This document shows positions 12,993 through 53,495 of a stretch of DNA of 64,000 bases, one piece after another. How positions within the stretch are numbered: position 1 is the first letter of the stretch; each line of letters opens with the position of its first letter. The stretch comes from Gemmatimonadota bacterium. Lineage in GTDB: Bacteria; Gemmatimonadota; Gemmatimonadetes; Palauibacterales; Palauibacteraceae. The notes beneath the pieces were generated by a model, which saw only the letters and a program-made list of their open reading frames with translations, did no database searches and had not been told where the DNA came from. Both the position numbers and the translations under genes were made by a program. Location: contig OY282356.1 of NCBI GenBank assembly GCA_958295535.1, positions 810,593 through 874,592 on the forward strand. The letters run 5' to 3'.

Positions 12993-13250
12993 TGGCCGGG
13001 GCCGGAATCCAGGAGGGGGCGGCAACGATCCGCCGATTCCGACCGCGGACGACGCTCGGATGGCGATGACCGGGGCCGGAATCCAGGAGGGGGCGGTAAC
13101 GATCCGCCGATTCCGACCGCAGACGACGCTCGGATGGCGATGACCGGGGCCGGAATCCGGAAGGGGGCGGCAACGATCCGCCGATTCCGACCGCAGACGA
13201 CGCTCGGATGGCGATGACCGGAGCCGGAATCCAGGAGGGGGCGGCGGCCA
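12983..13250. repeat. 74-nt tandem repeat, about 3.6 copies, filling the nuoK-nuoL junction
   Basis: Units start at 12983, 13057, 13131 and 13205: C(A/G)GATGG(T/C)GATG(G/A)CCGG(G/A)GCCGGAATCC(A/G)G(G/A)AGGGGGCGG... Each copy reproduces the nuoL start codon context and first roughly 12 codons. Confidence 0.95.
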
Positions 13251-31861: not shown

Positions 31862-32066
31862 GGGCCGGGCCCCGGCGACACCGCCTGTCCCGGCTGACAC
31901 CGCGCGTCCCGGCGCTATTACACCGGTTGCTCGGGGAGCGGGCGGGGACTTCGCGGCCCCTCGATACCGCGCATCCCGGCACTTTGGCGCCGGCTGGATT
32001 CGGGGAGCGGGCGGGGACTTCGCGGCCCCTCGATACCGCGCGTCCCGACGCTTTGACACCGGCCGG
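31862..32066. repeat. 69-nt tandem repeat, about 3 copies (first one diverged), upstream of kdsB
   Basis: TCGGGGAGCGGGCGGGGACTTCGCGGCCCCTCGATACCGCGC(A/G)TCCCG... starts at 31931 and 32000. A partial earlier copy is at 31862-31930. Confidence 0.85.
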
Positions 32067-36102: not shown

Positions 36103-36177
36103 AAAGAGTCCACGGCGAGCGGGGTGGTGGCTACGACGGCTCGCCGTTGCGACAGGTATCGCCGGTTGAGCTGTGAA
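36071..36177. repeat. 74-nt-period duplication of the kdsC 3' end including its stop
   Basis: CGTTGCGACAGGTATCGCCGGTTGCGCCGTGAA (36071) versus CGTTGCGACAGGTATCGCCGGTTGAGCTGTGAA (36145). The spacer forms the hairpin CGGCGAGC-N18-GCTCGCCG. Confidence 0.9.
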
Positions 36178-36216
36178 CGAGGAGAAATTCGTCATGGCGG
36201 CGACTCGGTGGTCGGC

Positions 36217-37086
36217 GTGAAGGCCGGCGCCAAGGGGCGTGCGTTGCGCATGCTCCTGTTTCCGGCGTTGCTGGGCGCCGCCGCCGCCGGATGCGGCTCC
36301 GGAGGCACGCTGCCGGCCGCCGAGCGGCTCTTCTCGGAAGATGTCGATCTAGTGATCTACGGAATGCGGACGAATGTCACTCGGGAAGGGATTAGGCGCG
36401 CGGTGGTGGAGGGAGACACGGCCGAGTTTCACGAAGGAAACGAGATTCACATTCGTCCGATGAGGGTCGTCTTCTACGATGGCATGGGCCGCCAGACCAC
36501 GGAGGTCACATCCGTGTATGGCGTGTTCGACGAAGTGGCGGGCGATCTGGACGCGACAGGGTCGGTGGTAGCCGTGGACCTGGTACTGGACCAGCGGCTG
36601 GAAACCGAGCATCTGAGATACGCGTACGCGGATGACCGCCTGTATGGCGACATGTCGTTTCGGCTGCTGCGCAATGCGGAAGGCATGGTCATCGAGGGCT
36701 CGTCATTCGAATCGGATCCGGCGCTCGACTCGGTGATCGTCTTCGATCCGTCGGGGCAGACGGGGCGTCTCGTTTCCAGCCCGGACGTGCCGGCGGCGGG
36801 AGACGATACTGCATCGGCGTCTCCGGACAGCGCGTCAGCGCCGGGAGACTCTCTGCAGGGCGCGCCCGGCGATACCACGGCGACGCCTGACGCCGAGTCG
36901 GCGGCGGGAGATTCTGCATCGGCGCCGCCGGACACTGCATCGGTATCGCCGGACACCGCCTCGGCGCTGCCGAACACCGCATCGGCGCCGCCGGACACCG
37001 TATCCGCGCCGCCGGACACTGCATCGGCTTCGCCGGACACCGCCTCGGCGCCGCCGGACACCGCCTCCGCGCCGCCGGATCCATGA
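36217..37086 (+). CDS. lptC: LptC-like LPS export protein, predicted lipoprotein with a C-terminal PDTASAP heptad-repeat tail
   Basis: Conserved position between kdsC and the OstA-like/lptB genes. Lipobox LLGAAAAGC. Beta-rich core about 150 aa long. The family call rests on context plus size. The ORF is open from 36124. Confidence 0.55.
   Translation: MKAGAKGRALRMLLFPALLGAAAAGCGSGGTLPAAERLFSEDVDLVIYGMRTNVTREGIRRAVVEGDTAEFHEGNEIHIRPMRVVFYDGMGRQTTEVTSVYGVFDEVAGDLDATGSVVAVDLVLDQRLETEHLRYAYADDRLYGDMSFRLLRNAEGMVIEGSSFESDPALDSVIVFDPSGQTGRLVSSPDVPAAGDDTASASPDSASAPGDSLQGAPGDTTATPDAESAAGDSASAPPDTASVSPDTASALPNTASAPPDTVSAPPDTASASPDTASAPPDTASAPPDP
36840..37083 (+). repeat. 21-nt (heptad) coding tandem array in the lptC tail
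   Basis: [87 protein letters not shown]. Confidence 0.9.
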
Positions 37087-39176
37087 CAGCCGGTTTCTCG
37101 AGAGTTTGTCTAGTATCGGCCGCAATCTCGTGCTTCTGCTACCCCCTCCTCGCGCAAGACGCAGACTCGGGCCGCCCGTCGGGGGCGATAGTCGGCAACT
37201 GTGCGTTGACCTGGGAGCCAGTCGACTCGAACACGCAGAGCTTCACCCACCGCGATACAGTTGGTGCGCACGTGACGCATCTAAGCGGGCGATATCTTTG
37301 GAGTTGCGGCTCGGCGACGATGGTTGCCGATAGCGCCATCAAGTGGGATGGCCCCGGCATGGTCGAGCTGTACGGAAACGTCCTCTATCGAGATAGCGTC
37401 CGCACTCTCAGGTCCGAGTTTCTCGTCTATCACCAGCTAAGGGACCTCGTTGTCGCAGAACGGTTCGTGAACTTGGAGCGTGCGTCCGACGGGTCTTTTC
37501 TCAGAGGTCCGCGTGTCGAGTTTCTGCGAGCCGTATCGGGCATCAACGCGGTCACGAGCGCCACTGGCCGCCCGATCGTGACATTCCGTGCCGAGAACGA
37601 TGAAGGAGGAGCCGGATCCTTCGAGATCCGGGCCGATAGCGTCGTCTTCGCCAGCGAGGACGAAGCTAGGTTCTTCGGTAACGCGATTATCGAGCAGAGC
37701 GGGCTTACGGCGAATGCCGACAGCGCGTATCTGATGCGGCAGGGCAACTCGGGGGTCCTCTGGGGAAGCCCGCGGATCGAGACCGAGGGGATGAGCGTCG
37801 AGGGCGATACCGTGCGGTTCGGCTCCGAGAGCGGGGAGTTGCGGCAAGTATCGGCCATCGGGCGCGGTCACGCAGTTGGCGAACGGTTCGAGGTGTCGGC
37901 CGACCGGATCGATGTCGCCATGCTTGAACGAGAGGCGAAGTCGGTTGTGGCTTACGGCAGCGGAATCGGCGAGGCGCAATCGGGCGAATCCCTTCTCTAT
38001 GGAGATTCGCTACACTTTGTCCTCTCTCAGGGGCGGATAGACACGATATACTCTGTGGGCGAGGCGGTAGCGATCCTTGGGGACAGCGCCGCAGCTGCAG
38101 CCGACTCGTTGGGTGGTCAGGGAGAAGAGATGGCGTCATCCGTTGGAGCCGGTGGCTTGCCGGGAGTCGGTGGAGCCGGGGACGAGGGCGACCTGCCGGC
38201 AGGCGCCAGTGACGGCGCACCGGGTGTCGAAGGCTTGAATGGCGGCGAGGATTCGACGGATGAACAGGAAAGCACGCCTCCGGAGCTTGGCATAGACGGC
38301 CCCGACAGCTGGGTCCGGGCGGACACGCTGGTCGCTATCTTCGAACGCCCGGGACATCTCTCGACTCCAGATTCTGCGGGAGCCCCTGCTGCTGCGGGAG
38401 CTCGGGAACCGGTATCCGCCGGTGAAGCGACGCCGGCCGACTCCCTGGCAGAACCGGGGGCGGATCCTGTGATGTCGCGCCTTCTCCTGATGGGATACGC
38501 GTCGGCTCTGTACCGGATCGTGCGAGATTCGACCGCTTCCGCACGGCCCTCGCGCAACTATCTGATAGGGGATCGCATTCAGATCGACTTCGTTGACGGA
38601 GAGCCGCGCACGGTCACGGGCGAGAATGCGGTCGGCATCTATCTTGAGCCTCAGCCCGTGCAGGCGGCGGAGGACTCGCTCGGAGCGTCGGCGGACTCCC
38701 TGGACGGCGCGGCCCGGGATTCGCTGGACGCCGCGCCGGGGGACACGGCGATTGCCACGCCGCCGGACACGGCGGCTGCCGCGCCACCCGACACGGCGAC
38801 TGCTACGCGACCGGACACGGCGGCTGCCGCGCCACCCGACACGGCGACTGCTACGCGACCGGACACGGCGACCGCCACGCCGCCGGACACGGCGACTGCC
38901 ACGCCACCGGACACTACGACCACAACGCCACGCTCGGTGGACGCTTCGTTGTCAGGTGCGAATAACGATCCCCTGGATCAGGCGCTTGCGATGCGCCTCG
39001 GCTCGGAGGGCTCGATGACGTTCCAACGCTGTCCCGTCTCGCCGGGCGTGGCGTGGCGCACCGGCGCACCCACCCCTCTCGCGTACCGGAGCCGCCGCTA
39101 CGACGCGCCGGTGTCGCCGGGCAGGCTGGAGAAGTTGTGTGCACGCCGGAGCCCAAGCGTGAGAAGCATCGGGTGA
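37083..39176 (+). CDS. large OstA/LptA-like periplasmic protein (697 aa) with an internal PDTA(A/T)A heptad array
   Basis: Signal peptide ...[10 protein letters not shown]. Repeated OstA-like segments ([23 protein letters not shown]..., [22 protein letters not shown]..., [25 protein letters not shown]...). Sits between lptC and lptB. ATGA overlap with lptC. Confidence 0.55.
38736..38930 (+). repeat. 21/42-nt coding tandem array ([16 protein letters not shown] ...)
   Basis: [65 protein letters not shown]. The 42-nt super-unit is repeated almost exactly. Confidence 0.9.
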
Positions 39177-40066
39177 GCGGCAGCTCTTCCCGAAGCCCTG
39201 GCGACTCCGGGCGGGACCGTCCTGGTTCCGGCGATAACCTTGCGGAAAGGGCCGGGCCTGCCGCCGAGCTTGGCAACGGCTCCGGCGACATGCCGCCAAG
39301 CGCCGCCAACGATCCGCGGCGCGGCGCGTCGGCTAGCGGGAACGGCAGCCTGTTGCGCGCGGAAGGACTCGTTCGGTCGTTCAAGAAGCGGCGCGTCGTC
39401 GACGATGTGGCGGTCGAAGTGCGCCAAGGGGAGATCGTGGGGTTGCTGGGGCCGAACGGGGCGGGGAAGACAACGACGTTCTACATGCTGGTGGGCCTGC
39501 TCAAGGCGGATGCCGGGAGCGTGTACATCGACAGCCAGAACATTACCCGTTGGCCGATGTACCGGCGGGCGCGCGCCGGACTCGGATACCTCCCGCAGGA
39601 GGCGTCCGTGTTCCAGAAGCTCACCGTGGAACAGAACATCATGGCGATTCTGGAAACGCTCAAGATCTCGCGGCAAGAGCGGCGCGACCGGCTGGAGCAG
39701 TTGCTCGGCGAACTGTCGCTCGAACCGCTGCGGCGGAGCAAAGCGTACTCGCTATCCGGCGGGGAACGCCGCCGGCTCGAAATCACCCGCGCGCTGGCGA
39801 TGCGTCCGAAATTCCTCCTTCTGGACGAACCCTTCACGGGCATAGACCCCATAGCGATCGACGAAATACAGCGAATCGTGCAGGAATTGACCGACAAGGG
39901 GTTGGGGATCCTGATAACCGACCACAATGTTCGCGAAACGCTGACAATCACGGATCGCGCGTATTTGCTCTTCGGGGGCATGATCCTTGTGGAAGGCCCC
40001 GCGGACGACCTTGTCAACGACCGTGTGGCTCGGTCGCTATACTTGGGGGAGGACTTCAGACTGTAG
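39173..40066 (+). CDS. lptB: LPS export ABC transporter ATP-binding protein LptB
   Basis: [16 protein letters not shown] (Walker A), [11 protein letters not shown] (signature), [12 protein letters not shown] (Walker B), [10 protein letters not shown]. The start is uncertain: GTG 39173 (GTGA overlap) or ATG 39290. Confidence 0.9.
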
Positions 40067-40269: not shown

Positions 40270-41739
40270 ATGACGCCGAGAGAGGTTGGCACGCAGCGGC
40301 ACGGCATGGCCGCCGATCTCGGTATGCGCCAGGAGATCCGAGCCAATCCGCGCTTGTACCAGGCGATGGATATCCTCTATATGCCGCTCGCAAGCTTGGA
40401 GCGGCGAATGAAGCAGGAGAAAAACGACAATCCCTTCCTCGAGATTGTCGAGCCGGACGAAGACGCCTTCGCAGGAGAGGAACGGGAGGCGGCGGACGCC
40501 GGCGGCGACGCGGATGATCCGGGCGACGATATCGAACAGGAAGACGCCCTATACTACGACGTGGATCCGGACGGCGAGAGACAGTGGGAGACTCGTGGCG
40601 GTACCGATGGTCCCACGCGGGAAGTGGTCGCGAGGCCGACCCTGCGAGAGGCTCTCGAGCGCCAGTTTCGACTGGAGAAGCTCGACGCTCGACAGACTCT
40701 GATTGGCGAACAGATACTCGACAGCATCGACAGTAGCGGTTTCCTGTCACGCCCTTTGGCGGACATTGGCGCCGCGGCCGGCGAAGTTATCCAGAATGAG
40801 GATGTCGAGGCCCGGCCCGTAAGTCCGGAGGAAGTGGCGGAAGCGCTCGCCGTAGTTCAGAGTTTCGATCCTAACGGCGTTGCCGCGCGGGATTTGCGCG
40901 ACACCTTCTTGATTCAACTGCGCAACAAGGGAGAGCGGCAGTCGCTGGCGTACGAAATTGTCCGCGACCATTGGGAAGCTGTGATAGAAGGGCGCTGGGG
41001 CGAACTGGAGCGCGAGTGCGATGTAGCTCGCGAAGCCATTGTCTCCGCCCGCGACGCGGTCGACAAGCTGGACCGCCGGCCGGGCCTGAAGTATGCGAGC
41101 GAGTTCGGCGCGTATGTCGTGCCGGATATGGAAGTGAGGAAGCTGAACGGAGGTTATCGGATCATGCATAACGATTCGATGCTTCCGCGCCTGACGCTGT
41201 CGCGGCGCTATATGGATATGCTTGGCGACGGAAAGTTCGAAGGGGAGGACAGGAAGTTCGTACAACGGAATCTTGACAAGGCGAATTGGATTATCAAAGC
41301 CGTGGAACAGCGTCGCCAGACTATGCTCGACGTCATGAGTTTCATTGTCAAGAGCCAGAGAAGCTATTTCGAGAAGGGTATCGAGCATTTGCAGCCGCTG
41401 ACGTTGGGCGATGTGGCCAAGCGTCTTGGCGTGCACCAGTCTACCGTGTCGCGCGCGACAAACGGGAAATATGTACAGACGCCGGCGGGCGATGTCGTTC
41501 CGCTGAAGCTTTTTTTTTCGGGCGGTTACGCGAAAGATGACGGCTCTCTGGTGTCTGCGCGGTCGGTAAAGGCGTGGATCAAAGAGCTGATAGACAGCGA
41601 AGATCCGGCGTCGCCGGTCAGCGACCTGGCGATTGCGCAGCTACTGGAGAAGAAGGGCGTCAGAATAGCGCGCCGCACGGTTGCCAAGTATCGTGGGCAG
41701 CTCATGATTCCGTCGTCGCGGATGCGGAAGGCGATATGA
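40270..41739 (+). CDS. rpoN: RNA polymerase sigma-54 factor
   Basis: Region I-like LGMRQEIRANPRLYQAMDILYMP...NDNPFLE, an acidic region II, the HTH, and the RpoN box ARRTVAKYR near the C-terminus. GGAGAGGGG lies before ATG 40270. Confidence 0.95.
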   Translation: MTPREVGTQRHGMAADLGMRQEIRANPRLYQAMDILYMPLASLERRMKQEKNDNPFLEIVEPDEDAFAGEEREAADAGGDADDPGDDIEQEDALYYDVDPDGERQWETRGGTDGPTREVVARPTLREALERQFRLEKLDARQTLIGEQILDSIDSSGFLSRPLADIGAAAGEVIQNEDVEARPVSPEEVAEALAVVQSFDPNGVAARDLRDTFLIQLRNKGERQSLAYEIVRDHWEAVIEGRWGELERECDVAREAIVSARDAVDKLDRRPGLKYASEFGAYVVPDMEVRKLNGGYRIMHNDSMLPRLTLSRRYMDMLGDGKFEGEDRKFVQRNLDKANWIIKAVEQRRQTMLDVMSFIVKSQRSYFEKGIEHLQPLTLGDVAKRLGVHQSTVSRATNGKYVQTPAGDVVPLKLFFSGGYAKDDGSLVSARSVKAWIKELIDSEDPASPVSDLAIAQLLEKKGVRIARRTVAKYRGQLMIPSSRMRKAI

Positions 41740-42671
41740 CGAGCGGCGCCCCTCGCGTGTCGATCATCGTGCCCGCGTACGACGAAGCCGACAATATGCC
41801 CGAGCTGTTCGCCGAGCTGGCCGAGACATTCTCCAAGCACGACTTCTCGGCGGAAGTCGTCGTCGTCGATGACGGATCGGCGGATGGCACGGCGCTGGCT
41901 GCGGAAAGCGCGGCATCGAATGCCGGCCTGGAAGATGTCGTGGTGCTGCAGCACCGAAGAAACCTCGGCAAGACGGAGGCGGTGCTGACGGCGTCGGACG
42001 AGGCGCGCGGGGAGCACCTGGTTCTATTCGATGCGGACCTGCAACACGATACGGACGAGATACCGCGCTTCGCCGCGATGTTGGATGACGGTTACGATGT
42101 GGCCGTCGGTCGCAAGGTGGGGCGCTACCAGAAACAGTTCGTCTCGTCGATCTACAACTGGTTCGCCCGCGCGATCTTTCGAGTCCCGGTTCGGGATCTG
42201 AACGCGATGAAGGCGTTTCGGGCGGATGTGCTGAAGGGACTCTCTCTTCGGCACGACTGGCACCGGTACTTAGTCGTGCTCGCGCACGCGGAGGGATACC
42301 GGATAGGGGAGCTGGACATCGCCTTGCGTCCGAGACGCCATGGAAAGCCGAAGTTCTCGGGCAGCGGCAGGATCGTGGTCGGCACCTTCGACTTGCTGGC
42401 GGTGTGGTTCCAACTGGTGGCCGGGCGGAAACCGCTCCTCTTCTTCGGCGCCACCGGCCTCGGGCTTGTCGCATCCGGCATAGCGACGGGGTTGGTGGCC
42501 GTGGTGCTCCGTCTGGCGTTCGGCCTCGGTTTCCGTCCCTTGCTGACACTCGTCGTGCTCCTGGTGGTCGCCGGACTGCTCCTCTTCATGCTGGGCTTGG
42601 TCGCGGAGCTGATAGCCCAGCTTCGAGACGAGGTCGAGATCCTCAAACGGGACCGGTGTGACCGCGGGTGA
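41736..42671 (+). CDS. GT2 polyprenyl-phosphate glycosyltransferase (ArnC/GtrB/DPM-synthase-like) with C-terminal TM helices
   Basis: VSIIVPAYDEADNM...VVVVDDGSADGT...LFDADLQHD (DxD), then two hydrophobic helices at the C-terminus. The ATG overlaps the rpoN stop (ATGA). Confidence 0.8.
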   Translation: MTSGAPRVSIIVPAYDEADNMPELFAELAETFSKHDFSAEVVVVDDGSADGTALAAESAASNAGLEDVVVLQHRRNLGKTEAVLTASDEARGEHLVLFDADLQHDTDEIPRFAAMLDDGYDVAVGRKVGRYQKQFVSSIYNWFARAIFRVPVRDLNAMKAFRADVLKGLSLRHDWHRYLVVLAHAEGYRIGELDIALRPRRHGKPKFSGSGRIVVGTFDLLAVWFQLVAGRKPLLFFGATGLGLVASGIATGLVAVVLRLAFGLGFRPLLTLVVLLVVAGLLLFMLGLVAELIAQLRDEVEILKRDRCDRG

Positions 42672-43900
42672 GAGTGGTTCATGTCGTCACCGCATTTCCG
42701 CGCCACGAGGGAGATGTCATCACGCCATGGTTGGTGCGGTTGCTGCTCGGACTCCGCGACGCCGGCGTCGATGCGGCGGTCCTGGCGCCGGCGTACCGGG
42801 GTGGCGGAGCGACCGAGTGGCGCGGCATCCCGGTGCGGAGGTTCCGCTACGCGCCGTCGTTTCTCGAGACGTTGACCCACGACCAGACCGTGCCTGACAG
42901 GTTGCGCTCCCGCCCCTGGGCGGCCGGACTTCTCCCGGCGTACATGGCGGGAGGGAGCGTTGCGTCGGTTCGCATGGGCGTAGCGGAACCTCCCGATGTG
43001 GTGCATGTCCACTGGCCCGTGCCGCACGCATGGTTCGGCGGCATCGCGCGGGCGGTCACGGACGGTTCCGCGGCGCTGGTCTCCACCTTCTACTCGGTGG
43101 AGATTCGCTGGATAGAGCGCCGGCTGCCGTGGGCGCTGCCCCTCCTTCGCTGGTCGGTCGAAGCATCGGATGCGGTGACCGCCATCTCGTCCTCGACCGC
43201 TGCCGCCCTCGGGCGGTACACCGGTCGCGATGTGCCGGTAATCCCCTTTAGCGCCTCGCTGTCGGCGACTCGAAGCGGTGCGGGGGCGGCGGTCGCCGCC
43301 GGCGCCGGACGGCTGCGAATACTCTTCGTGGGCCGTCTCGTCGAGCGCAAGGGCGTACCGGCGCTGATCCGGGCGTTGGCTCTGGTTCGAGAACGGCTGG
43401 ATGCCACGCTGGAGATCATCGGTGATGGGGAGTCGGCCGCGCAGCTGCGCTCCGAAGCCGAGCGGGCCGGGGTCGCTGCCGCGGTCGCCTTCCGGGGCCA
43501 AGTGGATGAGCGAGCGCTTCAGGAAGCGTACGAGAGGGCGGAGCTTCTCGTCCTTCCGGCCGTGGTCGACAGCAAGGGGGACACGGAGGGCCTTGGAGTC
43601 GTTCTCCTCGAAGCGCTCGAGTTCGGGCTGCCGGTGGTGGCGTCCGAGGTCGGCGGCATTCCCGACATCATCCGTCACCGCGAGACGGGACTACTGGTTC
43701 CGCCGGGAGAACCAGCTTCGCTTGCGGAGGCGATCCTCGAGGTGGCTGCCGATCCAGGCGCGGCGCGAGAGCGAGCCCGCCGAGGCCGGCGAGAGGTCCG
43801 CGAGCGCTTCGGGATGCAGGGCATAGTGGATCGCCTCATGGAGTGCTACCGGGACGCCATGGCCGCGCGACGCGGAGAAACGAGATGCGCCGTCCCGTGA
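42668..43900 (+). CDS. GT4-type (GT-B, RfaG-like) glycosyltransferase
   Basis: MRVVHVVTAFPRHEGD..., C-terminal EGLGVVLLEALEFGLPVVASEVGGIPDII...GLLVPPG (E-x7-E motif). GTG overlaps the upstream stop. Confidence 0.85.
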   Translation: MRVVHVVTAFPRHEGDVITPWLVRLLLGLRDAGVDAAVLAPAYRGGGATEWRGIPVRRFRYAPSFLETLTHDQTVPDRLRSRPWAAGLLPAYMAGGSVASVRMGVAEPPDVVHVHWPVPHAWFGGIARAVTDGSAALVSTFYSVEIRWIERRLPWALPLLRWSVEASDAVTAISSSTAAALGRYTGRDVPVIPFSASLSATRSGAGAAVAAGAGRLRILFVGRLVERKGVPALIRALALVRERLDATLEIIGDGESAAQLRSEAERAGVAAAVAFRGQVDERALQEAYERAELLVLPAVVDSKGDTEGLGVVLLEALEFGLPVVASEVGGIPDIIRHRETGLLVPPGEPASLAEAILEVAADPGAARERARRGRREVRERFGMQGIVDRLMECYRDAMAARRGETRCAVP

Positions 43901-43978: not shown

Positions 43979-44090
43979 CGACCTTCGCTCGCGCCGTGGC
44001 AGCGGGGCTTGTGCGCGGGTCTCGCAAACGGCCTCTAGGGCGCGGTCATCCATGACTTTCGCTCGCGCCGCGGCGGGGCTGGCGCTGCTG
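43979..44090. repeat. 74-nt-period duplication of the 5' end of the GT-C gene
   Basis: GACCTTCGCTCGCGCCGTGGCAGCGGGGCTTGTGCGC (43980) versus GACTTTCGCTCGCGCCGCGGCGGGGCTGGCGCTGC (44054, directly after the ATG at 44052). Confidence 0.8.
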
Positions 44091-45560
44091 CACATCCTGC
44101 TCGGGCTACTCGTCTTCGAGCCGGTGCTGAACCGCGGCGGCGACAACGCCCTGTATCTGATTCTCGGCGATGCGTTACGGAGCGGGGATGGATACCGCGA
44201 CCTTCACCTGCCCGGGACGCCGCTCCACACCAAGTATCCTCCGCTGCTGCCGCTCCTCCTGGCAGGAGTCGGCTGGGCGGGCGTCGGCGCGGCGAAGATC
44301 GCGATGCTTCTCCTCTCGGGGACGCTCGTATGGACCGCCGCTCTCATGGCCCGTACCGTCGCGGGAGACCGGACGGCCCTGCTCTTGGCCGGCGCGTTGG
44401 CGGCGAATCCGACTCTTCTGGAGTACGGACACTACATTCTGAGCGAGGTGCCGTTCACCCTTCTCGTCGTAGCCGCGCTGTGGCTGGCGAACCGCGAGAC
44501 GCCCCGGAGCGCCGGGCTGGCGATGTTCGCGGCCGCCGGGGCGTTCGCCACTCGCTCGGCCGGCTTGGCCATCCTTCTCGCGCTACCGGCGGCCTGGCTG
44601 CTTCAGCGCCGTTTCCGCAGGGCGGCCGTATCCGGCGCGGTTGCGGCCGCCACGCTCGGGGGTTGGACCATCTACCAGCGGTCGGCCGGTAGCGGCGGGA
44701 CAAGCTACTTGGAGCAGCTGCTGAGCGTCGATCCGTACGCGGCATCGGCCGGCACGGTGAACCTAGCCGGACTCGCTGGCCGCGCCGCCGAGAACTTCTG
44801 GGCTTACGCCAGCCGTGTCATGCCGCACACGGTGTTCGGTATCGAAGGCGAGGCGGCTGGCGGCGTAGCGGTCGTAGCAGGGCTGGCATTTGCGGCGGCC
44901 GCGGTGGTCGGGTGGACGATACGGACCCGTGCTCGCGCCGGCGCGCCCGAGGTGTTCGCCGTGCTCTACGCATCGCTGATCGCCGTCTGGCCGCCCGTGT
45001 GGACAGACCGCCGCTTTCTGCTTCCGATGCTGCCCGTGCTCCTCCTGTTCGCATTGACCGCCGCCGGAAAGCTGCCGTCGTCGTATGGCCGGTGGCTGAA
45101 GCCGGGAGTCGCGGCGTCGATCGCGTTATTCGGAGTTGCGTGGGTGATGAGCACGGCCCCCGGCCGCCTGGATTGCGTCGGCGCGTACCGGGACGGCCGC
45201 CCCTGCGAAGCGGCCAACTTTGCCAGCTTCTATTCGGCTGCGCGCTGGGCCCGCGACAACACGTCACCCGATGCGATCATTGCAAACAGGAAGCCAGGAT
45301 TTTTCTACTGGTATGGACGCCGGCGGGGAGATGTGTATCCGTACTCCAGCGACCCGGTGGCGGTCATGCGCGGCTTGGAGGGGATGGGCGCGGACTACGT
45401 GGTGGTCGACAGAGTCAGCCTCACCACGGACAGGTACCTGATCCCGGCGATGCGGGCCCATCCGAACCGTTTTCGACTCGTCTACGAAGGAGGCAATCCT
45501 CCAAGCGGGATATTCCGTCTTCTCCCGTCTCCGGCAAGCGCGCCGGCGGGCGATTCGTGA
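44052..45560 (+). CDS. GT-C fold membrane glycosyltransferase, ArnT/PMT-like (GT39/GT83-like)
   Basis: More than 10 TM helices. N-terminal loop GDNALYLILGDALRSGDGYRDLHLPGTPLHTKYPPLLPLLLA (D-containing first periplasmic loop plus a PPL motif typical of the family). Soluble C-terminal domain. Confidence 0.6.
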   Translation: MTFARAAAGLALLHILLGLLVFEPVLNRGGDNALYLILGDALRSGDGYRDLHLPGTPLHTKYPPLLPLLLAGVGWAGVGAAKIAMLLLSGTLVWTAALMARTVAGDRTALLLAGALAANPTLLEYGHYILSEVPFTLLVVAALWLANRETPRSAGLAMFAAAGAFATRSAGLAILLALPAAWLLQRRFRRAAVSGAVAAATLGGWTIYQRSAGSGGTSYLEQLLSVDPYAASAGTVNLAGLAGRAAENFWAYASRVMPHTVFGIEGEAAGGVAVVAGLAFAAAAVVGWTIRTRARAGAPEVFAVLYASLIAVWPPVWTDRRFLLPMLPVLLLFALTAAGKLPSSYGRWLKPGVAASIALFGVAWVMSTAPGRLDCVGAYRDGRPCEAANFASFYSAARWARDNTSPDAIIANRKPGFFYWYGRRRGDVYPYSSDPVAVMRGLEGMGADYVVVDRVSLTTDRYLIPAMRAHPNRFRLVYEGGNPPSGIFRLLPSPASAPAGDS

Positions 45561-45587
45561 TGGGCGGGCCGACTAGCCGAGATGCGG

Positions 45588-45675
45588 GCATCCGGCTGGC
45601 GTACAGTCCGCCGGACGCGCTTCGGCATCCGGATGGCGTACAATCCGCCGGACACGCTTCGACATCCGGAGGCGC
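45588..45675. repeat. 37-nt tandem repeat, about 2.3 copies, between the GT-C and YfhO-like genes
   Basis: GCATCCGGCTGGCGTACAGTCCGCCGGACGCGCTTCG / GCATCCGGATGGCGTACAATCCGCCGGACACGCTTCG / ACATCCGGAGGCG... Confidence 0.85.
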
Positions 45676-45717: not shown

Positions 45718-48192
45718 TTGAACGCTCGAGGCCGCGACGGCCGAGACTTCACGCTTTGGTGGTTCCTGGGCGGCGCGGCGGTGGTTTGCACGCTGTTCTA
45801 CCGGGATTTCATATTCCATCCGGAACGCCTGATCTTCGGCTCGGACATGCTCTTCGAGGGGATTTCGCTGCGGCGCTTCTACACGGACGAAATCCTGGCG
45901 GGCCGCGGCGTGCCCATGTGGGTGCCGCACGTATATGGCGGGATGCCATTCGTGGGGTTGCTGCCCGGGCCGATCTTCTACCCGACCACGCTCCTGTACC
46001 TGCTGATGCCGTTGCACCGCGCCATCGGCTGGACATTCGTCATGCACACCTTCCTGGGCGGCGCGTTCGGCTACTTTCTGGCGCGCTCGTTTCGGTTGCG
46101 GCCATCTTCGGCGGTCGTGTGCGGCGGCGCGTTCATGCTCACCGGCTACGTCACCTCCCACCTCTGGGGAGGACAGGACGGACGCATGTTCGGCATGGTT
46201 CTGATCCCGCTCGCGCTCGGCTGCCTGAACCGCGGGCTCGAGAGCGGGAAAGCCCGGTGGTTCTGCGGAGTGGCCTTCGCGATCGCCGCGCAGACATTCA
46301 CTCCTCACACCCAGGTGATGTACTTCTCGTCTCTAGCGTTGGCTCTCCTGTTTCTCTTCCACATCGTTTTCCGAATTCCGCGAGACAGGGGACGAGCGAC
46401 GCGGGACAGGGAACGAACTCCGCGGGACAGGGGACGAACTCCGCGGGGAGACGAACAGGCTGGAGGCCGCGATCGGAGCGGACGGGGAGATCGAGCGTCC
46501 CCGGGCGACCGGAGAAGAGCTGCGCTGAAGCCGTATCTGAAGCCTGTCGCCGGCTTCGGTCTGGCGGTTGCCGGCGCCGTAGCGCTGAGCGGCCCCCAGC
46601 TCTTCCCGACGCTCGCGTTGCTTGGGAGCGTAACGAGGGTCAGCGGGGGCGCCGGGTACGAATTTGCCGCCTCCTTCGCGCTGCCCCCGCAAGAGCTGAC
46701 GGCGTTCTTCCTCCCCGACCTCGTGAGTTCGCTCCCCGGCTCGTATTGGGGATCGAATCCTCTCAAGCTGCACACCGAGTATCTCGGCTCGGTGCCGATC
46801 GCCCTGGCGATCGTGGGCGTAGCGGCTGGATTCGGACGAGGCGCTCCGCTGTCGCAGCGCCGCGTAATCCGGTTTCTGGCGGCGGCCAGCGTGCTGGGCG
46901 TCCTCTTCGCCATGGGGGACAAGACGCCGGTCCACCGTATCGCGTACTACACGCTGCCGCTGATGGACAGCTTGCGGGCGCCTGCCATGATGATAGGGCC
47001 GGTGACCGTGTTCGTCTCGCTCCTGGCGGCGTATGGCTGGGAGGCGGCGCTGCGGTCCAGATCGGGGGAGGACATTCGGATCTCCTGGCCGGCGCTCGGT
47101 CTCCTTGGGGGGCCGCTTCTTCTGCTTGGCGCGGCTGCCGCGGTCAATCCGCAGGGCCTGCTGAACTTTGCGGTGGCGTCGTGGTACCCCGAGGGTTGGC
47201 CGCGCCGGCCCGACCCCGCTCTCGCATCTGCGCTGCGCGCGAACGGTCTGTTGCTGCTGGCGGGTTTCGCCGTCTCGTGGATCGCGTGCTGGACGGTCGC
47301 GCGGCGGAGGATCGGATCGTGGGCGGTCGCGGCGGTGGTAGTCGTCGGCGTCGCGGATCTCTGGCGCGTCGATGAGCGCTATCTGGTCGTGGCCGACGCG
47401 TCTCCCCAACTCGCGCCGGACGGGATAATGACGACGCTCGCCGAAGTGGCTGGTCCGGGGGAGCGGGTGTGGGCTCCGAATTTGGCCGGCGCCCCTCGCA
47501 ACTACCGGCCCAACGAGTTGACGTATCACGGTGTTTCCTCGGCGGCGGGGCTGCAGAAGTTCCTGCTTGATCCGTACGCGCGGCTGATCGGAGGATCCCC
47601 CGAGGAGGGCCTGATTCGTTATCCCGAGGCTCGCGAACTGTTGAATGTGCGCTACGTAATAATGCCCGGGCGGCAGGAGGGCGTGGAGTCGGTGGCGGAA
47701 GCGTCCGGCAGGAACCTGTACGCGTTCCCGCCGGGCGCCGGGTACGCCTACTTTCCGGCTGGCATCACGGAGGCGCCGGACAGCTCGGCGGCGCTGGCCG
47801 AAGTTCGCCGGAACGGCGACTTCCCGGCCATGTCCATAGTCGAAGAGAGGCCGGGCTTCGCTCCGCCGGAGGCGGGGCGGGGAAGCGCGGCGGTGGTGCG
47901 GTACGAGCCGGACTTCATCGAGCTGGATGTCGTGGCGGAGAAGGCCGGGCTGCTCGTGGTCAGCGAGCTGCACGACCCCGGCTGGCGAGCGTTCGTGGAT
48001 GGAGACGAGCGGGATGTGTGGCGCGCCAATGCGGCGCTTCGCGGCGTCGTCGTCCCGGAGGGACGGCACCGGCTCGTCTTCGAGTACCGGAGCCGGTCCT
48101 TCGCGTTAGGCGTGTGGACGTGCTTTGCCGCCCTCGGCCTAGCCGGCGCGGGATTGGCGCGATCGTGTCTCAGGTCGCGGCGCGGCAGCTGA
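45718..48192 (+). CDS. YfhO-like GT-C family membrane protein (824 aa)
   Basis: N-terminus FYRDFIFHPERLIFGSDMLFEGISLRRFYTDEILAGRGVPMWVPHVYGGMPF resembles the YfhO signature (G-D...W-P...GG-P). Many TM helices and a large C-terminal extracytoplasmic domain. Confidence 0.6.
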   Translation: MNARGRDGRDFTLWWFLGGAAVVCTLFYRDFIFHPERLIFGSDMLFEGISLRRFYTDEILAGRGVPMWVPHVYGGMPFVGLLPGPIFYPTTLLYLLMPLHRAIGWTFVMHTFLGGAFGYFLARSFRLRPSSAVVCGGAFMLTGYVTSHLWGGQDGRMFGMVLIPLALGCLNRGLESGKARWFCGVAFAIAAQTFTPHTQVMYFSSLALALLFLFHIVFRIPRDRGRATRDRERTPRDRGRTPRGDEQAGGRDRSGRGDRASPGDRRRAALKPYLKPVAGFGLAVAGAVALSGPQLFPTLALLGSVTRVSGGAGYEFAASFALPPQELTAFFLPDLVSSLPGSYWGSNPLKLHTEYLGSVPIALAIVGVAAGFGRGAPLSQRRVIRFLAAASVLGVLFAMGDKTPVHRIAYYTLPLMDSLRAPAMMIGPVTVFVSLLAAYGWEAALRSRSGEDIRISWPALGLLGGPLLLLGAAAAVNPQGLLNFAVASWYPEGWPRRPDPALASALRANGLLLLAGFAVSWIACWTVARRRIGSWAVAAVVVVGVADLWRVDERYLVVADASPQLAPDGIMTTLAEVAGPGERVWAPNLAGAPRNYRPNELTYHGVSSAAGLQKFLLDPYARLIGGSPEEGLIRYPEARELLNVRYVIMPGRQEGVESVAEASGRNLYAFPPGAGYAYFPAGITEAPDSSAALAEVRRNGDFPAMSIVEERPGFAPPEAGRGSAAVVRYEPDFIELDVVAEKAGLLVVSELHDPGWRAFVDGDERDVWRANAALRGVVVPEGRHRLVFEYRSRSFALGVWTCFAALGLAGAGLARSCLRSRRGS
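46379..46460 (+). repeat. 21-nt in-frame tandem repeat x3.5 encoding an Arg/Asp-rich loop
   Basis: CGCGAGACAGGGGACGAGCGA / CGCGGGACAGGGAACGAACTC / CGCGGGACAGGGGACGAACTC / CGCGGGGAGACGAAC, translating to RDRGRAT RDRERTP RDRGRTP RGDEQ. Confidence 0.85.
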
Positions 48193-48194
48193 CG

Positions 48195-49214
48195 ATGTGC
48201 GCGAGCAGCCGCGAGACCACAAGCCGCCGTTCCGGTGTCGCGGCGCCGCGCGCTGCCACCTTGGCCGCGGCGGCGTTCCTGCTCGCCGCGCTAGTCGCCG
48301 TCGGACTGGCCCTGTCGGGCAGCTGGGGCGAATGGCCGGCCATCCAGGCGGCAGCCGGGCACGGCTGGCGAATCAGGCCGCTGTATTTGGCGACAGCCCT
48401 GGTCTGCGCCGCGACCGCCCTGCTTTGCAGCGGCGCCGTCTGGGGCGCTCTCTTTCGCGCCGGGGGCGGCGAGATGGACAGGCGCGAAGCGGTTGCCGCG
48501 TGGATCGGCTCGAATCTGGGGCGCTACCTGCCCGGCAAGGTATGGCAAGTTGCGGGCTTGGTCGGGTACGTCCGCTCGCGCGGCGGGCCGGGAGCGGCCG
48601 CGCTTTCCGCGCTCCTCGTCAGCCAGGCGTCGCTGCTGTCCGTCGCCGCGGCGGCGAGCCTAGCGACTCTGGGCGCCGCGGCGTTCGCCGGCATGGGGCC
48701 ATGGGCGGCCGTGCTCGGGGTTCTGGGAGTCGCCGCGGCGTTCGCGCCCCCCGTGTTGCGCGCCGCGGTTCGCCTGGGCGCGCGGCTGCTGCGCGAACCT
48801 GCCGGCTCCGCCGCCATTTCCGCATCCTACGGCTTGAGAACATCGGGCCGGACGGCCGCCGCGAGCCTGCTGGTCTGGTGCCTGCACGGCCTCGGGTTCT
48901 GGTTCTTGATCAAGGGGCTCGTGGCCGAGATCCCCGTCGGCCCGTCCGAGGCGGCGGGCGTGTACGCGGCGGCCTACCTGGCAGGCTACCTCGCCTTGAT
49001 AGCGCCCGGCGGCATTGTCGTGCGGGAGGGAGCGATCGTAACCCTCCTGGGTCTGGTTGCTTCGGTGCCGCCCGGTCCGGCGGCGGCGTTGGCGCTCGCC
49101 GCCCGCATCTGGTCCACGTGCGCCGAGGTTGCGGCGTTCGGAGCCGCGGCGGCCGTGGCGGGGCTAGCCGCGCGGCGGCCCGGGGGATGCCCCGGGGCCG
49201 TGGTCGATCGGTAG
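48195..49214 (+). CDS. UPF0104 / LPG-synthase-TM (flippase-like) membrane protein
   Basis: Polytopic protein with the SNLGRYLPGKVWQVAGL motif typical of the lysylphosphatidylglycerol-synthase TM domain family. The ATG lies 3 nt after the YfhO stop. Confidence 0.6.
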   Translation: MCASSRETTSRRSGVAAPRAATLAAAAFLLAALVAVGLALSGSWGEWPAIQAAAGHGWRIRPLYLATALVCAATALLCSGAVWGALFRAGGGEMDRREAVAAWIGSNLGRYLPGKVWQVAGLVGYVRSRGGPGAAALSALLVSQASLLSVAAAASLATLGAAAFAGMGPWAAVLGVLGVAAAFAPPVLRAAVRLGARLLREPAGSAAISASYGLRTSGRTAAASLLVWCLHGLGFWFLIKGLVAEIPVGPSEAAGVYAAAYLAGYLALIAPGGIVVREGAIVTLLGLVASVPPGPAAALALAARIWSTCAEVAAFGAAAAVAGLAARRPGGCPGAVVDR

Positions 49215-49218
49215 CTCC

Positions 49219-50022
49219 ATGAATGCCATGAAGGCCGGCGCGCCGAACGGTCTCGAGGCCGGGAAGGCCGACGCGCCACGCGATCCGAAGAGCGGGAAGT
49301 CGGACGGCGAGCGCGCCCTGGTCATACTGCCTACCTACAACGAGGCGCAGGCTATCAGGGAGACCATCGCGGCGGTGTTGGCGCAGGGCGACCGCTTCTC
49401 CGTTCTGGTCGTGGATGATGCATCGCCGGACGGGACGGGCCAAGCGGCCGACGAGATCGCAGCCGCCGACTCCCGGGTTCACGTCTTGCACAGGGAGGGG
49501 AAGCTAGGGCTCGGTTCGGCGTATCTGGATGGGTTTCGCTGGGCGCTCCAGCGCGACTTCGGCCGGATCTTCGAGATGGACGCGGACGGATCGCACGACC
49601 CTCGCTATCTGCCCAAGCTGCTCGCGGCCGCCGAAGAGCTGGACCTGGTTATCGGTTCTCGCTACGTGCGGGGCGTCAACGTGATCGACTGGCCCATGTC
49701 GCGTCTCCTCCTGAGCTACTACGCGAACAAGTACGCCCGGCTGGCCACGGGGCTGCGGCTAGCCGATGCCACGAGCGGCTTCAGGTGCTTCAGGCGCCGC
49801 GTGCTCGAGGCGCTGGACCTCGGCGCGGTCGGATCGACCGGATACACCTTCCAGATCGAAGTGGCCTTTCTAGCGTGGAAGAAGGGGTTCCGCGTCGGTG
49901 AGATTCCGATAGTCTTCACCGGACGGTACCTGGGCGAGAGCAAGATGTCGGGCCGGATCATCTTCGAGGCGGTCTGGAGAGTGTGGGCTCTTCGGGTACG
50001 CTCCATAGCCGGGAGATTGTGA
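49219..50022 (+). CDS. polyprenol monophosphomannose synthase (Ppm1/DPM1-like GT2)
   Basis: LVILPTYNEAQAI...VLVVDDASPDGTG...HREGKLGLGSAYLDGF...FEMDADGSHDP...VIGSRYV...DATSGFRCFRR...GYTFQIE...GESKMS. Confidence 0.9.
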   Translation: MNAMKAGAPNGLEAGKADAPRDPKSGKSDGERALVILPTYNEAQAIRETIAAVLAQGDRFSVLVVDDASPDGTGQAADEIAAADSRVHVLHREGKLGLGSAYLDGFRWALQRDFGRIFEMDADGSHDPRYLPKLLAAAEELDLVIGSRYVRGVNVIDWPMSRLLLSYYANKYARLATGLRLADATSGFRCFRRRVLEALDLGAVGSTGYTFQIEVAFLAWKKGFRVGEIPIVFTGRYLGESKMSGRIIFEAVWRVWALRVRSIAGRL

Positions 50023-50023
50023 G

Positions 50024-51022
50024 ATGTTTCACAAGACGATGCCGTATGTGCAGTCGAAGCATGTTCCGGTCCAGCCGGCGATCGACTACGAACGCCATCC
50101 CGCGTTCAGAGACCGTGCCCGGTGGAGAAACGATGTCCACCGCGTAGTCTTCGGGAACATCACGCGTGCAGGCCGTCTGTTCGACGTAATTCTCATCTTT
50201 GTCATCCTGGCCAGTGTCGGGGTGGTGATGCTGGAGAGCGTGGATCGCTTCGCCTCGCGTTCGCGGGGGGTTCTCTGGGCGCTCGAATGGGTGTTCAGCG
50301 CGACGTTCACCATCGAGTACGCGTTTCGGCTGGCTAGCGCACAGAGGGCCGGGCGTTACGCTCGATCGTTCTTCGGGATCGTCGACCTGATGGCTATCCT
50401 GCCGACCTACATCGGATTGGTGGTGCCGGGCGGCCAGGCGTTAGCCGTCATCCGCGTACTGCGGGTGCTGCGCGTGTTCCGGGTTCTCAAGCTGGCGCAG
50501 TTCGTCGGCGGGGAAGTGCTCCTCCTTCGCGCCTTCCGGTCCAGCATGCACAAGATTGCCGTCTTCCTCATCGCGGTCGTCGTGGTCGTCGCGGTGGTGG
50601 GCGCGGCGATGTACGTGATAGAGGGACCCGGCTCGGGCTTCACCAGCATCCCGGTGGGCGTATACTGGGCTATCGTGACGGTCACGACGGTCGGCTACGG
50701 AGACGTGACTCCCGTCACGGTCGCGGGGCGGGCGCTGGCCTCTCTCCTGATGATTCTGGGATATGGCGTGATCGCGGTGCCGACCGGCATAGTGACCGCC
50801 CAGATCGCCGGGGACCGCCGGATTCTGGCGCGCGCTACGAGGCGTGGCGGCCTCCGGGACTCGGGTGGCAGCCTCCGGGGCGCGGGCGGCGTCCGGCCCG
50901 CAGTGCGCGAGCCGCCCGGCTTCGGCGACAGAGACGAACGGGCGTGCCCGAAGTGTCCCGCGGTCGGCCACCATCCCGACGCGCAGTACTGCCAGTATTG
51001 CGGCGAGGCGCTTGGCCAGTAA
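50024..51022 (+). CDS. voltage-gated-type K+ channel (6TM) with a C-terminal zinc ribbon
   Basis: S4 RVLRVLRVFRVLKL, selectivity filter TVTTVGYGD, C-terminal CPKC-x13-CQYC. The ATG lies 2 nt after the upstream stop. Confidence 0.9.
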   Translation: MFHKTMPYVQSKHVPVQPAIDYERHPAFRDRARWRNDVHRVVFGNITRAGRLFDVILIFVILASVGVVMLESVDRFASRSRGVLWALEWVFSATFTIEYAFRLASAQRAGRYARSFFGIVDLMAILPTYIGLVVPGGQALAVIRVLRVLRVFRVLKLAQFVGGEVLLLRAFRSSMHKIAVFLIAVVVVVAVVGAAMYVIEGPGSGFTSIPVGVYWAIVTVTTVGYGDVTPVTVAGRALASLLMILGYGVIAVPTGIVTAQIAGDRRILARATRRGGLRDSGGSLRGAGGVRPAVREPPGFGDRDERACPKCPAVGHHPDAQYCQYCGEALGQ

Positions 51023-51023
51023 G

Positions 51024-53270: not shown

Positions 53271-53327
53271 GCCGGGCGCCGCTTGGCGCTGAGCTTGCCA
53301 TCCGCCACCGGGCGCTTTGGGGAGACG

Positions 53328-53432
53328 CTCTCTCCCCGGCGGACGCTCCTTCTCCGGCGTGCGTTCCCCGGGCTCGCGCTCCCTCTTCGACGGTCGATCC
53401 CTTTCCGGCGGCTGCTCTGTCTCCTGTGGACG
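53328..53432. repeat. About 18-nt pyrimidine-rich tandem repeat x6 ahead of paralog B
   Basis: CTCTCTCCCCGGCGGACG / CTCCTTCTCCGGCGTGCG / TTCCCCGGGCTCGCG / CTCCCTCTTCGACGGTCG / ATCCCTTTCCGGCGGCTG / CTCTGTCTCCTGTGGACG. Confidence 0.75.
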
Positions 53433-53495
53433 ATCCTCGCGCGCGCGTTCACGCTTGGACGGGATCCGCGCGCCATCCGCCAAGCCGGCTCCGCG

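Follow-up and report, generated by a model that had tools for sequence, protein, structure and literature searches.

In the 64,000-nucleotide genome stretch of an uncultured marine, Palauibacterales-like Gemmatimonadota bacterium analysed here (the window; ~67% G+C), two adjacent genes for lipopolysaccharide (LPS) transport (Lpt) proteins, a lipoprotein-type lptC and an LptA-like gene, encode long disordered segments that carry arrays of short repeats. Across the orthologues compared, the only conserved element of these tails is the triplet D-(S/T)-(A/T/L/V/I/M), which by sequence is identical to the acceptor sequon of O-glycosylation in Bacteroidota. We conclude that the triplet is, with high probability, a selected functional motif. 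We also consider it somewhat probable, judging from the comparisons below, that the arrays are arrays of O-glycosylation sites, and we propose more tentatively that a YfhO-containing gene module downstream of them is the enzyme system that acts on them. An earlier note on this DNA had put forward the sequon reading. Its interpretation is partly supported, in that this reading appears to be backed by selection-level evidence and by the literature on the motif and the enzyme family. The relevant parts of the two genes are as follows.

36208..37086, + strand: lptC, lipoprotein type, 292 aa, GTG start at 36208 (sub-threshold TIGR04409 match, orthologues, fold, gene order)
36775..37083, + strand: LptC C-terminal disordered tail, residues 190-292 (repeats, translation)
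37083..39176, + strand: LptA/OstA-like elongated periplasmic protein, 697 aa (fold, distant homologues, gene order)
38079..38282, + strand: LptA-like middle disordered insert, residues 333-400 (model, orthologues)
38649..38933, + strand: LptA-like C-terminal disordered array, residues 523-617 (repeats, translation)
38934..39173, + strand: LptA-like Arg-rich, weakly conserved C-terminal end (pLDDT <45, orthologue consensus)

Tandem Repeats Finder and translation placed both arrays where the earlier note had seen them. In lptC the program identified a repeat at 36916-37079 (period 21, 7.8 copies, 82% matches). The ~12 heptads counted previously were recovered as an array, now with ~13 units of 6-8 residues: GDDTASAS, PDSASAP, GDSLQGAP, GDTTAT, PDAESAA, GDSASAP and PDTASVS (units 1-7), followed by PDTASAL, PNTASAP, PDTVSAP, PDTASAS, PDTASAP and PDTASAP (units 8-13). 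In the LptA-like gene a repeat at 38741-38914 (period 24, 7.2 copies, 82% matches) adjoins a degenerate period-24 stretch at 38685-38744. The ~9 heptads reported for this protein thus exist as an array but not with a heptad period, as three degenerate DSL units are followed by eight octads (24 bp) of the form PPDTAxAx. Each C-terminal array contained 11 matches to D[ST][AILVMT], at nucleotides 36805-37065 in lptC and 38673-38918 in the LptA-like gene. A tail count of 11 compares with 1.5 expected, as measured on the tail of P0001, which comes from a near-identical strain; the globular part of this protein is 100% identical, and its LptC array is rearranged and still contains 11 triplets. The whole 697-aa protein contained 26 triplets (3.4 expected) and the 320-aa lptC reading frame beginning at 36124 contained 14 (2.3 expected), while the remaining 49 gene-like open reading frames (ORFs) of the window contained 23 against ~37 expected. 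A six-frame scan of 800 kb, comprising the window and 39 related loci, found at least five motifs per 60 aa in these two genes alone. The possibility that the arrays are read in the wrong frame or are an artefact was rejected, as both frames have the third-position G+C bias of the genome (GC3 of 0.73-0.75 versus GC2 of 0.57) and orthologues throughout. Opposite-strand and shifted ORFs over the arrays had no comparable support.

Neither protein matched a Pfam family, even at E up to 10. The 292-aa protein matched NCBIfam TIGR04409 with E=6.5e-6 (25.8 bits, under the cut-off of 38) and the 697-aa protein matched TIGR03002 with E=0.015, which is below threshold. PF06835 was present in nine of 15 LptC orthologues, and PF03968 was found only in the distant LptA-like homologues P0084 and P0088-P0090. 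Although domain thresholds were not reached, the names LptC and LptA-like (OstA-like in the earlier note) stand because of the predicted folds, the orthologues, the gene order kdsA-kdsC-lptC-lptA-lptB-rpoN and the weak NCBIfam matches. LptC has a signal peptide with the lipobox ...LLGAAAAG-C29, and in the alignment the Cys that follows this peptide is shared by all full-length LptC orthologues. Its AlphaFold model contains a beta-jellyroll at residues 46-179 with a predicted local distance difference test score (pLDDT) >90, followed by a disordered tail from residue 190 (pLDDT ~45-50). The best Foldseek matches in the PDB were LptC chains (6mjp_C, 6mit_C, 3my2 and 4b54; target TM-score 0.7-0.82). 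The start of the LptA-like gene overlaps the lptC stop codon (ATGA), and its product has a cleavable signal peptide at approximately residues 1-24. In the model of this protein an extended beta-jellyroll occupies residues 43-332 and resumes at 409-421 and 463-521, with pLDDT >90 for the beta regions; residues 348-400 and 424-462 form disordered inserts, and everything from residue 530 onwards is a disordered tail. Foldseek matched it to the LptD N-terminal domain, LptA (2r1a, 2r19 and 4uu4) and LptC with a probability of 1.00. According to these models both proteins are Lpt beta-jellyroll proteins with disordered tails, and the LptA-like protein is a fused chain about three jellyroll units long. 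We take the two to be the inner-membrane-proximal parts of the periplasmic LPS bridge. With a lipobox or a signal peptide and periplasmic Lpt folds, the tail-bearing proteins are predicted to be exported.

The canonical E. coli bridge (LptC-LptA-LptD N-terminal domain) shares the beta-jellyroll fold and the order kdsC-lptC-lptA-lptB-rpoN with this locus. It differs in that LptC is anchored here by a lipobox Cys rather than by a transmembrane helix, that LptA is a single 697-aa chain spanning about three jellyroll units, and that both proteins carry ~100-residue disordered repeat extensions absent from solved structures. In E. coli LptC the transmembrane helix inserts between LptF and LptG; this LptC (window 36208-36294) was found to lack an N-terminal helix of that kind and has a signal peptide and conserved Cys instead, which implies a different coupling of LptC to the transporter. 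The middle insert of the LptA-like protein (pLDDT <50 at residues 348-389) also varies among lineages. It is acidic and Gly-rich, with three triplets, in the window organism and its closest relatives, and is a dense sequon-like array in most other lineages, such that two kinds of insert substitute for each other at one position (window 38079-38282 versus P0028, P0032, P0079 and P0080).

Conservation was examined in ~90 orthologues from the order Palauibacterales and relatives. Relatives of the 292-aa and 697-aa proteins were confined to Gemmatimonadota, as were all 36 related genome loci, which belong mostly to Candidatus Palauibacter and are metagenome-assembled (marine, sponge and similar samples). 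The earlier note had suggested looking for the tails in orthologues, and despite 40-60% divergence they were present in 14 of 15 LptC orthologues, while arrays were present in nearly all LptA-like orthologues. The LptC tails are 53-117 residues long, cannot be aligned with one another, and are all studded with DT[AT], DS[AVTLIM] or QDTA-type triplets. In the LptA-like family the arrays lie in the C-terminal tail, in most members also in the middle insert, and in a few directly after the signal peptide. Triplets are spaced five to nine or more residues apart, with repeat length and spacer residues drifting freely, and the third position, where Leu, Val, Ile and Met also occur, covers the whole set allowed in Bacteroidota, as in PDSIlaiPDSI (P0040), PDSLavpsDSLaappDSL (P0078) and PDSTvvppDSMavppDST (P0080). 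TCN as well as AGY codons are used for Ser, and GAC as well as GAT for Asp; the use of both Ser codon families indicates that the constraint acts at the protein level.

The triplet was enriched 6- to 8-fold over composition-preserving shuffles. LptC orthologue tails contained 79 triplets (10.1 in shuffles), the LptA-like middle disordered regions, taken wider than the one insert, contained 540 (92 expected), and the LptA-like C-terminal tails contained 464 (61 expected). In the LptC tails S or T followed 81% of Asp residues, and A, I, L, V, M or T came next in 89% of those cases; by data set, the third residue was within the allowed set in 82-95% of cases. Among 831 distinct 13-mers anchored on any Asp, information peaked at +1 (S/T in 78%) and +2 (T/A/L/V in 82%), with weak flanks. 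The control motifs (reversed motif, E[ST]x, P[ST]x and D[AG]x) were at or below expectation, and E[ST][AILVMT] was observed 0, 26 and 3 times in the three data sets compared to 2, 62 and 15 expected. Disordered or low-complexity segments were also defined in the same way for all genes of 37 sequences, after three mis-binned lpt genes had been removed from the control. The segments of the two lpt genes were 7.2-fold over expectation (6.6 triplets per 100 aa), while those of all other gene-like ORFs were at ~1.0-fold.

Substitutions were then counted in aligned disordered segments of 22 disjoint pairs of close orthologues that are 77-96% identical. Spacer positions differed in 17.0% of comparisons and Asp in 5.1%. 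The S/T position differed in 10.1%, half of which were S-T swaps, leaving 4.7% motif-breaking changes; the third position differed in 19.4%, three quarters of which remained within the allowed set, leaving 4.8%. Overall, motif-breaking changes were 3.5-fold rarer than spacer changes. As the triplet is kept while the repeats drift, with both relatedness and composition controlled for, we conclude that it is a short linear motif under purifying selection.

The + strand around the arrays carries pyrG, kdsA, kdsC, the 292-aa gene, the 697-aa gene, lptB and rpoN, followed by six glycosylation-type genes: two GT2 glycosyltransferases, one GT4, one PMT_2-like GT-C, one YfhO-like GT-C and one PF03706 protein. 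The order pyrG-kdsA-kdsC-lptC-lptA-lptB-rpoN-GT2-... was conserved across the 36 related genomes. The genes that follow the arrays are listed here.

39053..40066, + strand: lptB, ABC ATPase (PF00005, E=1.9e-35)
40330..41739, + strand: rpoN, sigma-54 (Pfam Sigma54_AID, Sigma54_CBD and Sigma54_DBD)
41736..42671, + strand: GT2a, two C-terminal transmembrane helices, GtrB/ArnC/PgfS type (PF00535, E=4.8e-25)
42668..43900, + strand: GT4 (GT-B fold), cytoplasmic glycosyltransferase (PF00534, E=5.6e-38)
44052..45560, + strand: PMT_2/ArnT-type GT-C membrane glycosyltransferase (Pfam matches in orthologues)
45718..48192, + strand: YfhO-like GT-C membrane glycosyltransferase, 824 aa (PF09586 at 27.7 bits, orthologues)
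48195..49214, + strand: PF03706 (LPG_synthase_TM) flippase-like membrane protein (PF03706, E=8e-10)
49219..50022, + strand: GT2b, soluble, Ppm1/DPM1/PpgS type (PF00535, E=2.3e-35)

The glycosyltransferase genes had been described as lying 3-11 kb downstream on the same strand. They form a conserved cluster there, but it begins closer, 2.6 kb past the LptA-like gene. In all loci that reach beyond rpoN (31 of 36), GT2a is the next gene, as it is in L037 and L039. Its full-length matches to NCBIfam ArnC PRK10714 (E=9.5e-30) and PgfS (E=4.3e-18), both under the cut-offs, make it a candidate polyprenyl-phosphate sugar synthase; GT2b, with matches to PpgS (E=9.2e-22) and AglJ (E=7.8e-18) that are likewise under the cut-offs, is a second candidate. 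The 540-aa PMT_2-like GT-C protein of the window had no Pfam match, while its 19 orthologues matched PF13231 (12 proteins, best E=1.4e-9), PF02366 (four) or PF03901 (three, Alg9-like). This gene was absent from the array-bearing locus L005 and from the cluster of Gemmatimonas sp. PF09586 was matched by all 17 YfhO-like orthologues tested (best E=1.3e-13), and a YfhO-like gene was found downstream in 28 of 28 loci that reach far enough. With 34,613 representatives at E up to 1e-3, the family of the window YfhO-like protein is large, and its few relatives named, by cluster names, are from Longimicrobiales and Zixibacteria. Searches of the PDB with both GT-C proteins, as single sequences and as profiles, gave no match. 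The PF03706 protein is conserved in the cluster, including that of Gemmatimonas sp., and no small GtrA/GtcA-type flippase was seen in the cluster.

Two distant relatives bear on the relationship between arrays and cluster. An array-free lineage has a 183-aa LptC and a 431-aa LptA-like protein, no GT-C or YfhO gene within 10 kb, and still retains the GT2 gene after rpoN. Gemmatimonas sp. has a cluster of the order GT2-GT4-PF03706-YfhO-GT2, and its LptA-like lipoprotein contains an N-terminal disordered stretch in which ADS[V/A/I] occurs four times. This pattern is compatible with a link between the arrays and YfhO, with very few cases to draw on.

Several other features of this region were recorded. 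The Arg-rich end of the LptA-like protein is encoded by DNA that also holds, in a different frame, the 5' part of lptB. In the window the lptB start is putative, with a candidate N-terminal extension at 39053-39290, and LptB is 392-413 aa in two relatives (L037 11293-12471 and L039 3375-4616). E. coli LptB is ~240 aa. A 21-bp tandem repeat within the YfhO-like gene (46379-46447, 3.3 copies) encodes an Arg/Asp-rich loop (RDRGRATRDRERTPRDRGRTPRG), and orthologues vary in length at this site. Seven kb beyond the cluster, 57062-58093 on the - strand encodes a PF04018 protein resembling undecaprenyl-phosphate translocases (DUF368/PopT type, E=2.4e-80), which would fit a role in recycling the lipid carrier once the sugar has been transferred in the periplasm. 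Tandem paralogous exported proteins with CBM9_1 and DUF5916 domains are encoded at 50844-53270 and 53283-55730 (808 and 815 aa). Four long-unit tandem repeats, at 2776-2957 (73 bp x2.5), 12980-13245 (74 bp x3.6), 31899-32063 (69 bp x2.4) and 45587-45674 (37 bp x2.4), all lie outside or at the edges of gene-like ORFs; the 74-bp repeat sits between two membrane-protein ORFs of the 3.7-18.7 kb block.

D(S/T)(A/I/L/M/T/V) is the sequon of Bacteroidota, in which the sugar is attached to Ser or Thr (PMC8550257, PMC10897501). A 2025 review describes this system as the only sequon-driven bacterial O-glycosylation known and as unique to Bacteroidota. The same review reports that B. fragilis does not accept Glu at position 1, that the glycan has a hexose, probably mannose, at its reducing end, and that in April 2025, ~16 years after the first description of the system, the transferase had yet to be found (PMC12871550). 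Sequons introduced by engineering also become glycosylated in Bacteroides and Flavobacterium. A July 2026 preprint predicts in silico that YfhO is the missing Bacteroidota O-oligosaccharyltransferase (10.64898/2026.07.27.740950). The present case resembles Bacteroidota O-glycosylation in the acceptor triplet, in the exclusion of Glu at position 1, in the presence of the motif on exported proteins that include Lpt components, and in the presence of a YfhO-like GT-C protein, YfhO being the predicted oligosaccharyltransferase of that system. It differs in phylum, in having dense tandem arrays in disordered tails rather than scattered single sites, and in the lack of a motif excess in the few remaining exported proteins encoded in the window; we saw no lfg-type outer-glycan locus, and glycans are here a prediction from sequence. 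The O-glycoproteins of P. gingivalis include a 65-kDa putative LptA, LptD and LptF (PMC8729774 and its supplement), which tempers the view of the earlier note that densely glycosylated, extended spacers on both components of the Lpt bridge would be new biology. We found no paper connecting Gemmatimonadota with O-glycosylation or YfhO.

The closest parallel for the enzymes comes from streptococci, where a GT2 protein (GtrB/PgfS) and a YfhO-family GT-C protein (PgtC2/PgfM1) glycosylate extracytoplasmic, Ser/Thr-rich disordered tails. The targets are membrane-anchored proteins, for example the lipoprotein PrsA, and the glycans protect them from proteolysis (10.1101/2024.05.05.592596). The locus described here likewise pairs a GT2 polyprenyl-phosphate sugar synthase candidate with a YfhO-like GT-C protein, and the candidate acceptors are extracytoplasmic, C-terminal, Ser/Thr-rich disordered tails of anchored proteins. 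The streptococcal hosts are Gram-positive, no Asp-containing sequon has been reported for them, and the flippase-like partner is of the GtrA/GtcA type, whereas here the host is diderm, the carriers are Lpt proteins and the partner is PF03706.

The YfhO-like GT-C protein is the best candidate for transfer of sugar to the arrays. In the proposed mechanism, GT2a (GtrB/ArnC/PgfS-like) would load a sugar on undecaprenyl phosphate at the cytoplasmic face of the membrane, the PF03706 flippase-like protein would carry the lipid-linked sugar to the periplasmic face, and the YfhO-family protein would move it onto the Ser or Thr that follows Asp in the unfolded tails. The pair formed by the Ppm1-like GT2 and the PMT_2-like GT-C, together with the GT4 protein, might extend the glycan or serve another acceptor. 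By analogy, glycosylation would turn the tails into hydrated, mucin-like segments that withstand periplasmic proteases and surround the Lpt bridge as spacers or bristles. It is gene neighbourhood that points to the link between arrays and cluster in this scheme.

Similar arrays occur on other proteins in metagenomes. A scan for four in-phase heptads with D-[ST]-x returned at least 120 stretches, most of which were generic 21-bp tandem repeats in any frame. As the scan pattern itself imposes the motif, the result is unusable as a census, and only the protein identities of a few clear cases were retained. Among the matches listed were two LptF/LptG permeases in which QDTTKK-type arrays split the periplasmic domain (PF03739, E of 1e-78 or better), one LptD_2 protein (PF19838) with ADTL arrays after the signal peptide, and a TonB_C lipoprotein and a DUF481 barrel with similar arrays. 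The Lpt components among them, all with D-[ST]-[AT] repeats in disordered inserts, are at the following positions.

L126 4531-6531, + strand: Lpt-component array in a metagenome contig
L082 785-2701, - strand: Lpt-component array in a metagenome contig
L116 1-1200, - strand: Lpt-component array in a metagenome contig

The LPS-transport machine may be a preferred carrier of such arrays. In a separate homologue search with the concatenated tails, two matches were left after a composition filter, too few to gauge how general the arrays are. One of these, P0092 (180 aa, on a 915-bp contig), is a small putative lipoprotein unrelated to Lpt that contains an RPDTA/RRDTx run (PDSTRPDTAAVVPPDTAAAVQRDSAAVARPDTVAVARPDTATVV...).

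A number of observations weigh against O-glycosylation of the arrays by the neighbouring cluster. Neither tandem duplication nor shared ancestry is accounted for in the shuffle statistics, and the pair test may be flattered by an aligner that favours identical Asp matches. Most of the motif has disappeared from the middle insert of the window organism. Among the few further exported proteins encoded in the window no motif excess was observed, and the two CBM9/DUF5916 proteins contain no D[ST][AILVMT] triplet at all (2.3 and 2.8 expected); these counts therefore do not point to a 'general' glycosylation system. The window YfhO-like protein scored 27.7 bits against PF09586, for which the cut-off is 28.5, with its C-terminal part alone aligned, and the preprint that proposes YfhO as the transferase notes its absence from P. 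gingivalis, a glycosylating species (10.64898/2026.07.27.740950). The cluster lies beside LPS genes and resembles ArnC/ArnT-type modules for lipid A or O-antigen, such that its acceptor may be LPS. Finally, the combination that the earlier note had named as counting against glycosylation, tails lost while the glycosylation genes are kept, occurs in part: Gemmatimonas sp. keeps the cluster though its LptC is tail-less, while its LptA-like protein has the small array described above.

These points have to be set against explanations that dispense with glycosylation altogether. The arrays are tandem DNA repeats, they are rearranged in a near-identical strain, and high-GC codons favour Ala, Pro, Asp and Thr, all of which would be expected if they were functionless products of neutral replication slippage in 21/24-bp microsatellite-like DNA of a high-GC genome. 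This explanation was already disfavoured and we regard it as very improbable, as the tails and arrays persist in orthologues at 40-60% divergence, the triplet survives changes in period, Ser codons of both families are used, motif positions evolve 3.5 times slower than spacers, and other low-complexity segments of the same genomes show no excess. Selection on the triplet could still have a cause other than glycosylation, the tails being unmodified disordered spacers in which it serves divalent cation or LPS phosphate binding, weak contacts with peptidoglycan or jellyroll edges, or tuning of charge and hydration. The jellyroll edge strands themselves have conserved ADSA/GDTV strand starts, and six to eight strands of the folded LptA-like domain begin with a conserved D[ST][AILV] (positions 83, 104, 213, 242, 308 and 320), indicating that the motif has a structural life in this family. 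Moreover, the confinement of arrays to Lpt proteins within the 800 kb, and their occurrence on LptF/G and LptD elsewhere, hints that their role is specific to Lpt and not that of a general modification. However, Pro-rich units cannot form jellyroll strands and no structure appears in the model, metal binding is poorly served by a single Asp per unit, the sequon is reproduced in detail by the exclusion of Glu and by the residues allowed in third place (A, T, L, V, I and M), and the TonB_C, DUF481 and other exported metagenome proteins carry similar arrays. We therefore consider unmodified spacers unlikely, though well above slippage in probability. Calcium binding and beta-strand mimicry were considered as specific roles for the triplet and ranked low.

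If the tails are glycosylated, the enzyme may nevertheless be encoded elsewhere, in which case the cluster would act on LPS (its lipid A, core or O-antigen) or on some other glycolipid of the envelope, like the ArnC/ArnT and Gtr systems. The full-length match of GT2a to ArnC (E=9.5e-30), the position of the cluster next to kdsA, kdsC and lptCAB, its persistence without the PMT_2-like gene in Gemmatimonas sp., retention of the GT2 gene in the array-free relative, and the undecaprenyl-phosphate translocase-like gene nearby all fit such a role. It is countered by the proven O-glycosylation of disordered Ser/Thr protein tails by YfhO-family enzymes, by the YfhO-like gene in every array-bearing locus that reaches far enough, by the lack of YfhO within 10 kb in the sole array-free relative examined, and by the small array on the Gemmatimonas LptA-like protein. 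We hold this division of labour to be a serious possibility, albeit a doubtful one. The earlier note had also pointed to the actinobacterial Pmt/Ppm1 context, in which a Ppm1-like GT2 would make polyprenyl-phosphate mannose and a PMT_2-like GT-C would modify Thr or Ser in a Pro/Ala context, Asp being incidental. The actinobacterial system likewise combines a GT2 synthase (of polyprenyl-phosphate mannose) with a GT-C protein, and its targets are Thr/Ser residues within the Pro/Ala-rich linkers of secreted proteins and lipoproteins. Twelve of the 19 PMT_2-like orthologues match PMT_2 and four match PMT, GT2b resembles polyprenyl-phosphate sugar synthases, T-rich arrays in lipoprotein linkers are common on high-GC metagenome contigs, and the reducing-end sugar in Bacteroidota is a hexose, probably mannose. 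Yet Pmt acts without a sequon, whereas no residue here is more constrained than Asp (5.1% change versus 17% in spacers), which a sequon-free Pmt leaves unexplained. Because Asp is strictly kept and the PMT_2-like GT-C is missing from array-bearing L005, this mechanism fits less well; the gene is also missing from the Gemmatimonas cluster, and the window GT-C protein itself has no PMT match. O-mannosylation of the actinobacterial type is accordingly improbable. Sequon-directed O-glycosylation of the tails remains the explanation that we favour.

The presence of sequon-like arrays and a downstream YfhO-like gene outside Bacteroidota raises the possibility that this type of O-glycosylation reaches beyond that phylum; if so, the 'Bacteroidota-specific' system would not be phylum-specific. 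That a YfhO-like gene and its likely donor-making partners lie in one block with two sequon-rich proteins, in another phylum, provides independent guilt-by-association support for the predicted role of YfhO. With up to dozens of sequon copies on two proteins beside this gene, the locus offers a compact test case consisting of one tail and one enzyme. Even if the tails prove to be unmodified, a strictly conserved tripeptide within freely drifting repeats still needs an explanation. More speculatively, sequon-directed O-glycosylation might be older and wider than recognized, extending to Gemmatimonadota and perhaps to Zixibacteria or other Fibrobacterota-Chlorobiota-Bacteroidota (FCB) phyla, with YfhO, a GtrB-like GT2 and PF03706 as its machinery and with the enzymes encoded beside their densest substrates. 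The LPS bridge of these organisms would then be clothed in a mucin-like coat, which in some lineages would also cover LptF/G and LptD. Long, probably glycosylated disordered segments of this kind on LptC, the LptA-like protein, LptF/G and LptD have no counterpart in any solved Lpt structure, and they could affect passage of the bridge through peptidoglycan, its resistance to proteases and the width of the periplasm.

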